Made by a program: the position numbers and the translations under genes
The notes under the pieces: generated by a model
What the model was told of the DNA's origin: nothing
What the model saw: the letters and a program-made list of their open reading frames with translations, nothing else
Database searches by the model: none
Assembly (NCBI GenBank): GCA_032691205.1
Contig: GCA_032691205.1_4541.1
DNA length: 64,000 bases
Source: a phage
Strand: one strand, 5' to 3'
Shown here: positions 50,925 through 59,682 of the stretch, piece after piece
Numbering within the stretch: position 1 is the stretch's first letter
Layout: every line of letters begins with the position of its first letter

Positions 50925-51293
50925 ATGAAGGTATTAAACTTTTACCATTTAGGCAAAACAATCCCAGAAGGTGCTGTTTATATTGGTAGAGCAATGCCAC
51001 ACATGGGGCTAAAAGCCTCCAAGTTTGCAAACCCTTTTAAGTTAAAAGATGATGAACCACGAGGATCAACTATACAAAGGTATAAAGAGTGGTTGTGGGA
51101 GCAAATTCGTTGTGGTAAGATCACTCTTGAAGATTTATTAGGGTTAGAAGGGAAAGATTTAGTTTGTTTCTGCTCACCTCAACCTTGTCATGGAGATGTA
51201 TTGGTAGCAGCCGTAGCTTGGGCTAGAAAAGAGTGGGACAAAAGGCATCCTACTTATGTAGACAATTATTGGATTTGGGAGGAGAATTTTTGA
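50925..51293 (+). CDS. DUF4326-like protein (putative; CFCSPQPCHGDVL motif)
   Basis: ORF track; motifs YIGR, SKFANPF, CFCSPQPCHGDVL. Confidence 0.5.
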   Translation: MKVLNFYHLGKTIPEGAVYIGRAMPHMGLKASKFANPFKLKDDEPRGSTIQRYKEWLWEQIRCGKITLEDLLGLEGKDLVCFCSPQPCHGDVLVAAVAWARKEWDKRHPTYVDNYWIWEENF

Positions 51294-52180: not shown

Positions 52181-54811
52181 GTGTCTACACAATTGAGTTT
52201 TACACCTACTGATGAACAATACGCTATTGAAAGCGGGTATAAAGAAAATCGTTTCGTTACAATTCAAGCTAAATCTGGATCAGGTAAAACGTCAACACTG
52301 TATATGTTGGCTAATGGCACAAATGATAGTATTCTATATTTGGCATTTAACAAAAGTATGGCAGAGGAAGCTCGACGTAAAATGCCGCCCAATGTTATGT
52401 GCCGAACGCTACATTCAATCTGTTACCAACGTCTTCCACAAAACCTTCGACACAAATTGTCTCGTCCAGAAGGTCAATATGTTAACGTAGCTGGAACTGG
52501 TAGTGAGATTGCCAAAAAATTCAAGATTCAGAATTTGATTGATAAGAATGGTAAAGTGCTACTGACTCGTGCAATGATCGGGTTAATGGTAAAACAAACT
52601 TTAGCTAAATATGAGTTTTCTGACGATGAACATATTGGACATAAACATTTTCCTAAAGTGCATATGTCAGATCTTAAACGTAAGAACATCAACGAACAAA
52701 AACTTATTAACGAAGTTGTTAAATATGCGAAGCAACTTTGGCGTGAGCGTATTGATCCTAAATCAGAAACCATTATGACTCATGACACCTATGTGAAACT
52801 CTTTGAATTGAGTAAAGAAGATTTAGGATACGATATTATTTTTGGAGATGAATTCCAGGATGTTAACCCTGCATTCCTGTCTATCCTTCGCAATGCTAAA
52901 TCGGCTAAACGTATTGTTGTTGTGGGTGATGAGTTTCAGTGTGTGTCTGAGAACACTTTGCTTAACACTGAACAAGGGAAAGTTTTAATGAAAGATCTTC
53001 AGGTCGGGGATAAAGTAGAGTCTTACTTAAACGGTAAAGTGGTGTTTAAAACAGTCACAAACAAAACTTTATCTACTCGAACAGAAGGCAGAAACATTAT
53101 TACATCCAAAGGGAATACGTTAGACATGACTCACAATCATCGCATATGGGCTTCTTCTTACACTTTAAAAGAAGACCAAATGATTGTTTACCTTATGTGG
53201 AGAAAAGATTTAGGCTTTCGTGTAGGAATTACTAACAAATTCGATGATAAAGAAGGTTTTTCTAAACTGGGGCAACGTACACGTTCTGAAAAAGCACAGA
53301 AATTGTGGGTGTTGGATATTGTTGAAAACCGTGAAGCTGCTATGGAAAAAGAAATGGCATACAGTTTACAATATGGCATTCCTACTTGTGTATTTGAAGC
53401 AAGTTCACGCAGTATTAATCAAGAAAGGGTCAATAACATTTTTGAACAATTCGGACAAAACGGTTTTAAACTTTTAGAGGATAAAGATTATCATTTTGAC
53501 TATCCTCATTGGCACAGTATTAACTCTTCAACAGAGAATCGCAAAATGCTTACTGTCTCACTGCGTGCTCAAGGTAAGAAAGGGACTGAGGTGCACTTTG
53601 AATGGACAGAAGAAGAGATGCAGATTTTCGATACTTTGGTAGAGGCAGGTGTTAAGATAAGTAATGCTAAAAATGCAGGTCGTTTCCGTGTTCGTAAGTA
53701 TTTTGCATCTTATAGTGAAGCTTTAACTTTCGCAGAAGAAATTTTAACTATTATTCCTTTCGCCTCTTTGAAAGAGTCTATGGCATCTGTAGATGGTGTA
53801 AAGTATAACTTAATACCTGCCGCAGGATTGTTTAAAGGAATGTCTGTGCTTGTTAAAAACGGGGATACTGTTGTTGCTGAAGAGATTGTAGAGATTGAAG
53901 ATACTCAAGGTTTCTACTATGATGTAGAGATTGAAGATACTGCAAACTTCTTTGGGAATAACATTTTAAGTCATAATTGTATCTACCAGTTCCGAGGTAG
54001 TTCTAATATGATGGTTGAGACTGCCACATATGGGGTTGAGTTGCCTCTGACAGCTTGTTTTCGCTTTGGTCCTAAAGTTGCGGACATTGCTAATGCGATC
54101 CTTTCTGATCGCTCACCTCTGAAGCATCCGCTGGTAGGGAAAGGTTATGATACTGTCACTGGAAGTTTTCATTCTGATGTGGTAGATTATAGTAAACCTT
54201 ACACCATTATTTTCCGTAAGAATTTGACCCTGTTGCTCGAAGCTATGGATCGAATCGCTAACGGAGAAGAGATTATTATTAACGTAGATACCAAAGATTT
54301 CATTTCTATGGTTGATAGTGTTAATGCTTTACGTAGAGGTGATTTGGACAAAGTTAAGCATGAGACAGTTCTACCTTACACTTCTTGGGAAGAATTTGTA
54401 GAGTGTGCAGAATCAGATCCTGATGCAAAACGACTTTTAAACATCGTTGTTTCTGGTAAAGCTAATAATATTGCATACACTTTACGTATGCACCGTAACT
54501 CTCCAACGGCTAAAGTTACTTTAACTACAGCCCACAAATCAAAAGGTTTGGAATGGGATCAGGTTATTGTTGCAAATGACTTCCCTTCTAATTATGATAA
54601 GAAGGGTGAGTGGGTAGGTCTTGAAGAATCAGAACGAAATCTTCTGTATGTTGCACATACACGTTGTATTAAATGTCTGCAATGGAACCGAACTGTTCAA
54701 GAGATTTTAGACATGCATCGTTTAGGTAAGAGCACGGCTCCTGTATCTGAAGAAGATAAGCTTATAGCTGCCCTTGCTCGTAAGATTAATCAAATCAGAG
54801 AGGATCGTTAA
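52181..54811 (+). CDS. UvrD/Rep-like SF1 helicase interrupted by an intein
   Basis: Walker A SGSGKTST; VVGDEFQ then intein then CIYQFRGSS (motif III); TAHKSKGLEWD; YVAHTRC. Confidence 0.8.
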   Translation: MSTQLSFTPTDEQYAIESGYKENRFVTIQAKSGSGKTSTLYMLANGTNDSILYLAFNKSMAEEARRKMPPNVMCRTLHSICYQRLPQNLRHKLSRPEGQYVNVAGTGSEIAKKFKIQNLIDKNGKVLLTRAMIGLMVKQTLAKYEFSDDEHIGHKHFPKVHMSDLKRKNINEQKLINEVVKYAKQLWRERIDPKSETIMTHDTYVKLFELSKEDLGYDIIFGDEFQDVNPAFLSILRNAKSAKRIVVVGDEFQCVSENTLLNTEQGKVLMKDLQVGDKVESYLNGKVVFKTVTNKTLSTRTEGRNIITSKGNTLDMTHNHRIWASSYTLKEDQMIVYLMWRKDLGFRVGITNKFDDKEGFSKLGQRTRSEKAQKLWVLDIVENREAAMEKEMAYSLQYGIPTCVFEASSRSINQERVNNIFEQFGQNGFKLLEDKDYHFDYPHWHSINSSTENRKMLTVSLRAQGKKGTEVHFEWTEEEMQIFDTLVEAGVKISNAKNAGRFRVRKYFASYSEALTFAEEILTIIPFASLKESMASVDGVKYNLIPAAGLFKGMSVLVKNGDTVVAEEIVEIEDTQGFYYDVEIEDTANFFGNNILSHNCIYQFRGSSNMMVETATYGVELPLTACFRFGPKVADIANAILSDRSPLKHPLVGKGYDTVTGSFHSDVVDYSKPYTIIFRKNLTLLLEAMDRIANGEEIIINVDTKDFISMVDSVNALRRGDLDKVKHETVLPYTSWEEFVECAESDPDAKRLLNIVVSGKANNIAYTLRMHRNSPTAKVTLTTAHKSKGLEWDQVIVANDFPSNYDKKGEWVGLEESERNLLYVAHTRCIKCLQWNRTVQEILDMHRLGKSTAPVSEEDKLIAALARKINQIREDR
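52940..53977 (+). other. intein (346 aa) within helicase motif III, possibly with a homing-endonuclease domain
   Basis: Starts Cys (CVSENTLL), internal TLDMTHNH block, ends ...NNILSHN followed by Cys. Confidence 0.7.
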
Positions 54812-55063
54812 ATGGCAGGGTATCACATAACAGACATTAAGAAACAATCTTACGGAAGCATAGAAAAGATTAAAGAGGAAGTGGAAGAACTTTTCGATGC
54901 TGTTGAACAGGATTGCAAAATAATGCAACTTGTTGAACTATCTGATATTATAGGTGCTGTCGAGGGAGTGTTAGAACAACAGTTCCCAGGTACGACTTTA
55001 CAAGATTTGATCATTATGTCAAACATTACTAAACGTGCGTTTCGCACAGGAGGAAGGTCATGA
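54812..55063 (+). CDS. MazG/HisE-like NTP pyrophosphohydrolase (putative, 83 aa)
   Basis: EE/ExxD-rich helices IEKIKEEVEELFDAVEQD ... VELSDIIGAVEGV. Confidence 0.45.
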   Translation: MAGYHITDIKKQSYGSIEKIKEEVEELFDAVEQDCKIMQLVELSDIIGAVEGVLEQQFPGTTLQDLIIMSNITKRAFRTGGRS

Positions 55064-57098: not shown

Positions 57099-57971
57099 AT
57101 GAAAGATTTGTACCAAGATGTTTTTTCTTTTTTAGATCGCACTTCAGAAACATACACTAGAGAGAATGCAAACAAACCTTCCCACCTTGTTAACACGCAC
57201 AGGGATCTCTTGGCGGGGATTTTAAGCAAACATATGGCAATGACACAGATACTGCCAAAAAACTTGTCAGAGTGGCATACAGAAGGTTTTGGACATATTC
57301 ACGACTTGGATTATCTGCTCTCTCCTCTTACAAACTGTTGTCTTGTTAATTATCAAGATATGTTAGAGAATGGTTTTAAGATCGGTGCTGCACAGATAGA
57401 AAAACCAAAATCTATTGGAGTAGCTACTACAGTGCTAACTCAAATCATCCAAGCTGTTGCCTCCAGTCAGTATGGAGGTCAGACGTGTGCTCACATTGAT
57501 AAAGGTCTTAGTCCTTATGTTGAAGCCAGTTTCCTTAAAAACATGGAGATAACCAAACGTCGCTACGGTTGTTATGCAAGGAAAGAAGCCCTAGAAATGA
57601 CCGAACAAGATGTATATGACGCTATGCAAACTCTCTTGTATCAGGTTAACACTTTAATGAGTGTTAATGGACAATCTCCTTTTATTACAATCAGTATGGG
57701 TCTGGATACCTCTGTTTTTGGCAGAATGATCACAGCTAACTATCTTAAAGTGCATAGTAACGGTCTAGGCAAAGATCATGTAACGCCTGTATTCCCTAAA
57801 GTTATTTTCTTTTTACAAGAAGGTGTTAACATGAAACCTAGTGATCCTAACTACGACCTTAAGCAACAAGCTTTGGCATGTTGTGCTGATCGTATTTATC
57901 CAGATTTTATTTCTGTTCCTTTGAACAAAGAAGTTACGGGATCAGCAGATGGTACCGTTACGAGTATGGGT
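57099..57971 (+). CDS. nrdD: anaerobic ribonucleoside-triphosphate reductase, exon 1
   Basis: NrdD-like N-terminal translation; exon ends at ...VTSMG (codon ggt ending in T) before the in-frame stop. Confidence 0.8.
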
Positions 57972-58740
57972 AAACTATAACTGCTCATGTAAAATCTGCC
58001 TAAACGGGGGAACTCTCAACGAGACAATCCCGTGCTAAACGTAACAGAACTCCCAACACAGAAGAAGGGGGTACTGATATGAGAAAACAAATTCGTGATT
58101 TTGAAGGGTATGAAATTGACGAGCTTGGAAATGTTTATTGTACCAGGTATAAGGATGAAAGAATCCTTCGCTCGTGGGAAGAAATAAACACAGGATACCA
58201 ACTTGTCAGAATACGTAAAAACAAGAAAACTGTTTGCTTTCGGGTGCACAGACTTGTAGCTGAAGCGTTTTTACCCAATCCAGACAATTTACCTTATGTG
58301 AAGCATAAAGGTGACAATAGGAAAGACAACAGTGTATACAATCTTGAGTGGGGATCTTGTCCAGACAACACGCAAGAGGGTTACGATAATAACTGTTATG
58401 CTTTCTATACAAGGTGTCACAGTGTAAAAGCTACTCATAAGGCTACTGGTGAAGTTTTTTACTTTAAAAGTCTGAGATGTTGTGCTGACGCTTTAGGGTT
58501 GGACAGAAAAAGAATATCTGCAATCTTAAAGCGAGGAGCACCAAATAATTATGATTATGAGTTCTGTTACGAAATGCCTAACGACTAGCTGTGATGAATG
58601 TAGCAGCGTAGGGTGTAAGCCTATGACACCCCAAATGGTAGACATGCTTTAAGCATGAAGATATAGTCTGATCTGCATGGTGACATGCAGCAGCACGTAA
58701 TGGTGCGGGAGCGGCCTTGCGAGCCACTTTGAACATAATG
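57972..58740 (+). mobile_element. group I intron in nrdD (boundaries inferred)
   Basis: Splits the conserved ...TSMG/CRSFL... junction; ends in G; contains an HNH endonuclease ORF. Confidence 0.6.
58079..58588 (+). CDS. intron-encoded HNH homing endonuclease
   Basis: YEIDELGNVY (NUMOD4-like) and HRLVAEAF..VKHKGDNRKDN..NLEW (HNH_3-like). Confidence 0.8.
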   Translation: MRKQIRDFEGYEIDELGNVYCTRYKDERILRSWEEINTGYQLVRIRKNKKTVCFRVHRLVAEAFLPNPDNLPYVKHKGDNRKDNSVYNLEWGSCPDNTQEGYDNNCYAFYTRCHSVKATHKATGEVFYFKSLRCCADALGLDRKRISAILKRGAPNNYDYEFCYEMPND

Positions 58741-59682
58741 TGTAGAAGTTTCTTGTCGTACTATGCCACCGAACAAGGAGAAAAATATGATGGACGATTC
58801 AACCTTGGAGTAGTTTCTATCAACTTGCCTCTGATTGCTGCGGAAGCGAGAAGTAAAGGAGAATCTTTCACCGATCTTCTTAATAAACATATGGAGATAG
58901 CCTACGATGCTCACATGTTACGTGTAAACCGTATCAGACATACCAAAGCATCGGAAAACCCTATTCTTTTCATGGAAGGGGCTTTAGCGCGTTTAAATGC
59001 CAACGATGAAATTGGTGCTTTGTTTGAAGGTGGTTATGCTTCTATTAGTATTGGTTATGTAGGTCTTGCCGAAGCTTTGGAAATCCTTTATCCAGAGGAA
59101 AAAGATAAAAAGGAACTAGGTAAAAACATTCTGCAACATATGAAAGATGTGTGTGCTGTGTTTAAAGAACGATCTAAGTTGGCATTTAGTCTTTATGGAA
59201 CTCCAGCAGAATCCTTGTGCTATAAATTTGCAACAGCTTTAAATGAAAAATATCCAGGTCTGGTAGAAAGAGACTATCTTACTAATTCTTTTCATCAACC
59301 TGTAGGGTTGGTAACAAATCCTTTTGAAAAATGGGATTATGAAGCAGGTTTTGCACAGATTAGCAATGGTGGTAACATAAGTTATGTCGAAACACCAAAC
59401 TTAAAGAATAACTTAGAAGCTTTGGAGACTTTAGTAGACTACGCTTATGAACATATTCACTATTTTGGTATTAATCAGCCCGTGGATCAATGCTTTAAGT
59501 GTGGTTTTCATGGAGAATTTAAGGCAACGGCTAAAGGGTTTGAGTGTCCTGATTGTGGCAACCATGAAGAAGAAACTATTTCTGTAGTTAGACGTGTATC
59601 AGGGTATCTTTCTGCCCCTAATTCACGGCCTTATAACAAAGGTAAAATGCAGGAAGTTTTGCAAAGGGAGAAACATCTTTGA
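58741..59682 (+). CDS. nrdD: anaerobic ribonucleoside-triphosphate reductase, exon 2
   Basis: C-terminal Cys cluster CFKCGFHG..CPDCG and glycyl-radical motif RVSGYL. Confidence 0.8.
   Translation, partial: CRSFLSYYATEQGEKYDGRFNLGVVSINLPLIAAEARSKGESFTDLLNKHMEIAYDAHMLRVNRIRHTKASENPILFMEGALARLNANDEIGALFEGGYASISIGYVGLAEALEILYPEEKDKKELGKNILQHMKDVCAVFKERSKLAFSLYGTPAESLCYKFATALNEKYPGLVERDYLTNSFHQPVGLVTNPFEKWDYEAGFAQISNGGNISYVETPNLKNNLEALETLVDYAYEHIHYFGINQPVDQCFKCGFHGEFKATAKGFECPDCGNHEEETISVVRRVSGYLSAPNSRPYNKGKMQEVLQREKHL

Follow-up and report, generated by a model that had tools for sequence, protein, structure and literature searches.

A class-1 intein with a putative homing endonuclease domain in motif III of a phage UvrD-type helicase

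Inteins of UvrD-type helicases have been recorded in bacteria and in phages. UvrD is listed with 16 inteins in a bacterial survey (Novikova et al. 2016, PMC4760082), and the Escherichia phages PaulScherrer (MZ501100) and JohannJBalmer (MZ501084) of the BASEL collection, in the description of which inteins were identified through comparative annotation (PMC8594841), are annotated with an "intein-containing UvrD / Rep family helicase precursor", in which mat_peptide features mark the helicase and, at the same site as here, the intein. The record of vB_EcoM_ZYD (PQ110661) is also annotated "intein-containing UvrD". A 2024 paper states that no inteins have been reported in coliphages (PMC11162368), and full-text literature searches found no paper naming the UvrD intein of coliphages. 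The present analysis concerns a stretch of 64,000 nucleotides of phage DNA (contig GCA_032691205.1_4541.1 of GenBank assembly GCA_032691205.1), referred to here as the window, in which bases 52940–53977 are confirmed to encode a class-1 intein that interrupts motif III of a UvrD-type helicase. The window intein is a new allele, divergent from those already annotated in sister phages, and is one of a large family that occupies motif III of superfamily 1 (SF1) helicases. As the relatives are annotated and the window protein is not, this kind of intein is known but has been poorly propagated in annotation. The helicase gene and the parts of its intein are arranged as follows.

52181–54811, plus strand: open reading frame (ORF) of the helicase precursor, a UvrD/Rep-type SF1 helicase with the intein; GTG start, 876 amino acids plus stop.
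52181–52939, plus strand: N-extein, 253 amino acids, with Walker A (AKSGSGKT), motif II (FGDEFQD) and the first half of motif III (VVGDEFQ).
52940–53977, plus strand: class-1 intein (Cys1 ... His345-Asn346), 346 amino acids, in frame.
52940–53152, plus strand: N-terminal half of the Hint domain, intein residues 1–71, with Cys1 of block A at 52940–52942 and T64-H-N-H67 of block B at 53129–53140.
53153–53794, plus strand: central inserted domain, a putative homing endonuclease, intein residues 72–285, with lobe 1 at about 80–150 and lobe 2 at about 190–270.
53795–53977, plus strand: C-terminal half of the Hint domain, intein residues 286–346, with block F (YD328VEIEDTANFFGN) and block G (ILSH345N346, codons 53972–53977).
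53978–54811, plus strand: C-extein, 277 amino acids plus stop, with Cys+1 (53978–53980) and the second half of motif III (CIYQFRGS).

The precursor reads KRIVVVGDEFQ/CVSENTLLNT near residue 253 and NFFGNNILSHN/CIYQFRGSS near residue 599. A sequence-only reading of the locus had placed a Hint-domain intein of 346 residues at 52940–53977, in motif III of a UvrD-like helicase, and its coordinates and boundary residues are all correct: in the ORF translation the insert starts with Cys and ends with His-Asn, followed by Cys, and the TxxH-like block that it had pointed out is found as LDMTHNH at intein residues 61–67. The residues of class-1 splicing are complete (Cys1, T64xxH67, Asp328 in block F, His345, Asn346 and Cys+1), and the splicing domain has the Hint (horseshoe beta) fold. 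Pfam Hint and Hint_2 give partial matches on intein residues 1–79, phmmer aligns the C-terminal region of the intein with the C-terminus of the gp41-1 intein, and TIGR01443 (intein_Cterm) reaches 16.7 bits on the full precursor, above its cut-off of 15.6. The profile search of the insert alone, which the same reading had proposed as a check, gives 36.4 bits for Pfam Intein_splicing against a gathering score of 35.8.

The host protein is a UvrD-like helicase, as had been read from the sequence: Pfam UvrD-helicase (PF00580) matches the precursor with 49.7 bits (cut-off 23) and UvrD_C (PF13361) with 41.3 bits (cut-off 25.6), AAA_19 also exceeds its curated cut-off, and PHROG 1967, "DNA helicase", matches at E 1e-154. 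The insertion site is SF1 motif III, with motif II (FGDEFQDVNP) located 25 residues upstream. Conceptual removal of the insert yields a product of 530 residues with the Walker A sequence AKSGSGKT, the same motif II and an unbroken motif III, VVGDEFQCIYQFRGS, in which motifs I–III of the UvrD/Rep/PcrA SF1 helicases appear as GSGKT, DEFQD and GDEFQCIYQFRGS. The exact protein of 876 residues is present at NCBI as ELO6086397.1, "AAA family ATPase [Escherichia coli]", the sole member of its own 90%-identity cluster; its contig (153,336 bp) is part of an E. coli assembly, so a phage genome is filed here as bacterial, with the intein unannotated.

Empty alleles also mark the boundaries. The window is a Phapecoctavirus, with the 20 kb around the helicase gene 96–97% identical to PNJ1809-36, nieznany, phAPEC8 and ESCO5, and the insert is precisely absent from orthologues that are 98% identical. 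The helicase coding sequence of phAPEC8_ev052 measures 1593 nucleotides, the sum of the two exteins (759 + 834), and the protein alignment to this intein-free homologue, a further check that had been proposed, leaves one clean gap of 346 residues exactly at the predicted boundaries, with exteins that are 99% identical in protein. At motif III the intein-free allele is VVGDEFQSIYQFRGS; phAPEC8_ev052 reads VVGDEFQ-SIYQFRGSQ, with Ser (AGT) at the +1 position. Across the homologues, the insert is either missing or is bounded by HN/[S/C], with S-N in a few. The case that the sequence-only reading had named as a refutation, homologues with an insertion domain here that lacks Cys/HN-Cys boundaries, is thus not what the homologues show.

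At the nucleotide level, the N-extein is 98.6% and the C-extein 97.7% identical to phAPEC8_ev052, from which the intein is absent, while the identities to PaulScherrer and muut, both of the genus Justusliebigvirus, are 73.4–73.6% for the N-extein, 78.7–79.0% for the intein and 71.5–71.7% for the C-extein. A spliced-junction query of 382 nucleotides finds a contiguous match in 67 phage records at 94–95.5% identity, and the intein DNA is present in 39 phage records; no copy of the window allele was found above about 80% nucleotide identity in INPHARED or 82% amino acid identity in IMG/VR. A partial match to the intein DNA (68% coverage, 66.6% identity) lies in a "hypothetical protein" of Klebsiella phage KP13-16 (OP617741.1, 137 kb; 100290–100999), possibly a copy that is more remote or has decayed.

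Protein splicing activity is predicted because the splicing residues are intact and the insert disrupts an essential helicase motif; its steps would follow established intein chemistry. Translation would first give the precursor of 876 residues, in which Cys1 would undergo an N–S acyl shift and the resulting thioester would be handed to Cys+1. Cyclisation of Asn346, assisted by His345, would then free the intein of 346 residues, and an S–N shift would remake the peptide bond, yielding a helicase of 530 residues with motif III restored as VVGDEFQ-CIYQFRGS and the predicted junction peptide VVGDEFQCIYQFR.

The sequences flanking the intein, and the intein alleles themselves, carry signs of homing and recombination, two of which can be delimited in the window.

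53978–54034, plus strand: co-conversion tract of 57 nucleotides, the first 19 codons of the C-extein, differing from the intein-free allele.
53231–53498, plus strand: recombination patch within the intein, residues 98–187, nearly identical to the Justusliebigvirus allele.

Compared with phAPEC8_ev052, the 19 codons of the tract comprise 7 identical, 8 synonymous, 3 non-synonymous and 1 gapped, and include the Ser-to-Cys change at +1; past the tract, 255 of 258 codons of the C-extein are identical. Homing presumably introduced this tract together with the intein. Upstream of the insert, the last 39 nucleotides of the N-extein before the junction are without differences from phAPEC8_ev052. A second intein-bearing Phapecoctavirus, DIJ07P2 (L003, OZ035771.1, 2001–4631), has another intein allele that is 98% identical in nucleotides to that of PaulScherrer; its C-extein matches Justusliebigvirus exactly over about 270 nucleotides, and its N-extein shares 97% identity with phAPEC8. 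The DIJ07P2 intein thus stems from a separate homing event, whose co-conversion tract is longer than that of the window, and Phapecoctavirus has received the intein on at least two occasions and from different donors.

Between the window intein and its Justusliebigvirus counterparts, the synonymous divergence (dS) is above 2.7 or undefined, i.e., saturated, and the non-synonymous divergence (dN) is 0.08–0.24. The low dN together with the saturated dS indicates that purifying selection acts on the whole intein, including the central domain. The 53231–53498 patch departs from this pattern, with only 6 differences from PaulScherrer in 268 nucleotides (97.8% identity, dS 0.105) between flanks that are about 25–30% divergent; it spans the core of the putative nuclease lobe, and its best explanation is that intein alleles have recently recombined.

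The mobility steps that these comparisons suggest begin with the central domain of about 214 residues, which most likely acts as an endonuclease, in the free intein or in the precursor, during co-infection. The proposed cut site is the intein-free helicase allele at GDEFQ/SIYQFRG; a target of the phAPEC8 type would be GGTGATGAGTTTCAG^AGTATTTATCAGTTCCGTGG, or, in extended form, ...GGTGATGAGTTTCAG^AGTATTTATCAGTTCCGTGGAAGC... Repair off the intein-bearing copy would then import the intein along with a short stretch of C-extein.

The sequence-only reading had left room in the insert for an endonuclease domain of non-obvious type, and this description holds, as neither LAGLIDADG nor HNH nor any other model matches the central domain. 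A LAGLIDADG or HNH endonuclease was considered and rejected: Pfam gave no such match at E up to 10 for the domain and its 41 relatives (an alignment of 41 members, 30–48% identical to the window sequence), and the structural model starts with a beta-hairpin. With the same 41 sequences, NCBIfam and PHROGs gave only scattered chance matches. The domain is nevertheless widespread. When 1.84 billion cluster representatives were searched exhaustively with its profile, 1122 matched at E up to 1e-3, 94 of them at E up to 1e-30, and nearly all of the matches lie in proteins of 800–2500 residues. Most of the 111 matches with a full-length domain continue into a Hint C-terminus and then into HN/[S/C]IYxFRG, the SF1 motif-III site; the family alignment ends in NFFGNxILSHN, and a UvrD of Margulisiibacteriota reads GDDSQ/CLKKGT...VTHN/SIYSFRG. 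A profile search of genome contigs with a 2-sequence alignment returned two metagenome-assembled genomes only.

Conservation of at least 90% over the 41 members is found (in intein numbering) at Y84, L85, M86, R88, G92, R94, G96, R113, E117, A119, W123, E138, S142, L143, P148, F168, G172, N174, G175, L179 and P189. The C-terminal part of the intein is more variable in some relatives, P0028, P0030, P0034, P0076 and P0084 being among those that deviate there: some end in TSN/SIY, with Ser replacing the penultimate His, and others have an extra, unrelated insertion between the central domain and the Hint C-terminus. The domain also matches (Foldseek E 3.3e-5, 21% identity) a protein of 782 residues in the BFVD structure database, A0A8S5TZY8 of Myoviridae sp. 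ctCuC1, labelled "adenine-specific DNA methyltransferase", so the module may sit in inteins of other host proteins too.

The fold of the central domain was approached through AlphaFold2 (AF2) predictions. The domain-only model, with a predicted local distance difference test score (pLDDT) of 75.6, consists of two lobes joined by a long helix. Lobe 1 runs beta-beta-(alpha)-beta-alpha and contains the conserved Y84, R94-x-G96, R113, E117 and E138; lobe 2 is formed by a three-stranded sheet plus a helix, followed by a further strand and helix. The AF2 predictions (pLDDT 67.6 and 75.6) were built on alignments of 5–6 sequences, because the searches for homologous proteins gave 1–4 relatives, against 1122 by the exhaustive search, and this limits the fold searches. 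Foldseek connects the model to phage GIY-YIG_SF and NUMOD endonucleases of BFVD with probabilities of 0.85–0.92, among them a GIY-YIG_SF protein (26% identity, probability 0.89), NUMOD proteins and one "homing endonuclease", at E of about 0.03–0.06. Profile alignment with hhalign to residues 1–110 of E. coli UvrC pairs IVY with GVY, RVG with YVG, and E138 with the Glu helix of UvrC (P 0.078), and alignment to an I-TevI-like profile of 23 domains from IMG/VR loci pairs beta3 and the next helix, with E138 opposite the catalytic E75 (P 0.014–0.026). These weak signals agree in register, with a Tyr in beta1, a Gly ending beta2, an Arg-x3-Glu in alpha1 and a Glu in the helix after beta3.

That the central domain consists of a GIY-YIG-like nuclease lobe plus a DNA-binding lobe is given about an even chance, and as a hypothesis, cleavage would proceed through a GIY-YIG-like site for which Y84, R113, E117 and E138 are the candidate residues. 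GIY-YIG endonucleases have been described as unknown inside inteins (Dassa et al. 2009, PMC2677866), and the open literature, as searched, yielded no later description of such an enzyme within an intein. A broader proposal is put forward tentatively and falls somewhat short of even odds: the domain would define an uncatalogued, widespread family of homing endonucleases, composed of a divergent GIY-YIG-type lobe and a MotA/AP2-like lobe, which would be the first clear GIY-YIG case in inteins and which would also escape into free-standing form. The escape in question concerns two stand-alone ORFs of 265–305 residues that are homologous to the central domain.

L050, 4001–4798, Logan contig SRR21713527_33579: free-standing ORF P0002.
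L051, 4001–4918, Logan contig SRR26268931_724450: free-standing ORF P0004.

Both ORFs keep remnants of the N- and C-terminal strands of the Hint domain and have lost Cys1, TxxH and the terminal HN. On these phage-like contigs, the free-standing ORF directly adjoins a UvrD-type helicase gene that is intact and free of an intein, on its upstream side in L050 and on its downstream side in L051; motif III of these helicases reads GDSYQAIYGFR and GDTNQAIFGFS, respectively, with Ala at the +1 position. The ORFs look like intein-derived homing endonuclease genes, and their arrangement would fit an autonomous homing-endonuclease module that may be housed in an intein or beside its target gene. In L050, a gene matching Pfam GIY-YIG is located on the opposite side of the helicase.

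The intein as a whole is read with considerable confidence as a class-1, motif-III element that splices and homes by means of its central domain, with the GIY-YIG-like assignment of the nuclease lobe as the weakest step. Several observations weigh against this reading. For the splicing domain, Pfam Intein_splicing scores 33.8 bits on the whole precursor, slightly below its gathering score, and AF2 confidence is low over intein residues 1–47; for homing, the co-conversion tract is seen on the 3' side only, with none visible on the 5' side. The objections are more numerous for the nuclease lobe: the hhalign probabilities are below 5% for both UvrC and the I-TevI family, a search of the 41 members with GIY-YIG sequence models, including the clan members T5orf172 and MUG113, gave no significant match (Pfam GIY-YIG PF01541 hits one of 41 at E 2.8, and T5orf172 one of 41 at E 0.092), PDB sequences searched with a profile of these 41 members yielded no match at E up to 10, and the canonical GIY-YIG Asn has no clear counterpart in the domain. 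The GIY-YIG assignment is, accordingly, not statistically secure.

The alternative that survives best accepts that the central domain drives homing and places it outside the GIY-YIG superfamily, either as a new nuclease fold or as a DNA-binding domain alone that relies on a nuclease supplied in trans ("collaborative homing"). This is a serious possibility, judged to lie on the doubtful side of even. Against it stand several independent weak signals that share one superfamily and one register, and, in one of the two contigs with a free-standing copy, the position of that copy beside the UvrD gene without any other linked nuclease.

An intein that splices but is immobile, with a central domain that has decayed, is inactive, or is kept as a structural or maturase-like part, and that passes on by vertical inheritance, is improbable. 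Such an element would agree with the failure of every library to recognise a nuclease motif or family in the domain, and with the restriction of the exact allele to one public protein cluster. It is hard to reconcile with the low dN of the central domain against a saturated dS, with about 20 positions conserved to at least 90% over 41 members as diverse as those aligned here, with the presence and absence of the intein among phages that are 96–98% identical, with the foreign C-extein tracts at its flank, or with the independent entry of two different alleles into Phapecoctavirus. A permanent, non-splicing accessory domain of the helicase, for which nothing specific speaks beyond the tolerance of SF1 helicases for accessory domains elsewhere, is extremely improbable, as the insert splits catalytic motif III between Gln and Ser/Cys, has the Hint fold with all splicing residues, is dispensable in near-identical phages that function without it, and retains the HN/[S/C] junction in its relatives.

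The genes around the helicase were also inspected. A 122-residue ORF at 50925–51293 encodes a DUF4326 protein (Pfam 76 bits) that is a conserved neighbour of the helicase in related phages, and the ORF at 54812–55063, which has weak PRA-PH/MazG-like similarity, is also conserved beside it. Further along the window, nrdD (anaerobic ribonucleotide reductase, 57099–59682) is in two pieces about 740 nucleotides apart, the insert lying at about 57981–58716: an ORF of 293 residues covers positions 1–263 of 562 of the NRDD profile, and an ORF of 321 residues follows from 58717. The gap holds an ORF of 169 residues (58079–58588) that by eye resembles a homing endonuclease of the NUMOD4/HNH type, and a sub-threshold Rfam group I intron match at 58583–58690 (39.3 bits, gathering score 50, E 9e-8); the insert is probably a group I intron with an endonuclease. 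The nrdD of PaulScherrer is contiguous, with 610 residues, and other Phapecoctavirus records annotate two reductase pieces.

The locus neatly documents intein homing in nature between two genera of coliphages, with empty and occupied alleles at 98% identity, two independent invasions with tracts of unlike lengths, and a patch exchanged between alleles; the phages are easily cultured in E. coli, which makes homing directly measurable. The annotation that the helicase gene should have is that of an intein-containing precursor of a UvrD-type helicase, giving rise to two mature products; sister records are often labelled "hypothetical protein" or "DNA helicase". The central domain is the most useful lead, as it is common in public data and found in no domain library searched; if it is of the GIY-YIG type, it would add a third nuclease class to the homing endonucleases borne by inteins, and also a new scaffold for site-specific nucleases.

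Among known systems, the UvrD/Rep intein of Justusliebigvirus coliphages (the phi92 gp198 group, annotated in PaulScherrer, JohannJBalmer and vB_EcoM_ZYD) is the same in host gene, insertion point (GDEFQ/C...SHN/CIYQFRGS), length and domain order, and an intein of this type (IMG/VR locus L047) is the closest relative found, with 82% protein identity. The two differ in nucleotide sequence, at 78.7–79% identity and with saturated synonymous divergence outside the 268-nucleotide patch, and in setting: the window intein sits in a Phapecoctavirus backbone, and nearly all sequenced members of that genus are intein-free. The inteins of bacterial UvrD/PcrA-type helicases, in proteins of 800–2500 residues, share the central domain, the Hint termini and the site before [S/C]IYxFRG, but are only 30–48% identical in the central domain, mostly have Ser at +1, and in a few cases end in S-N rather than H-N. 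From canonical full-length inteins with LAGLIDADG or HNH endonucleases (for example PI-SceI, PI-PfuI and PI-PkoII), the window intein differs in that its nested domain has neither signature and opens with a beta-hairpin instead of a helix. With the catalytic domain of I-TevI, the N-terminal domain of UvrC and SLX1, the central domain, as modelled and aligned, may share the order of secondary structures and the positions of the Tyr, the Gly, the Arg-x3-X and the Glu; the structural and profile matches to these GIY-YIG nucleases are weak, and the domain differs from them in a longer beta2–alpha1 loop and in the lack of a clear equivalent of their Asn.

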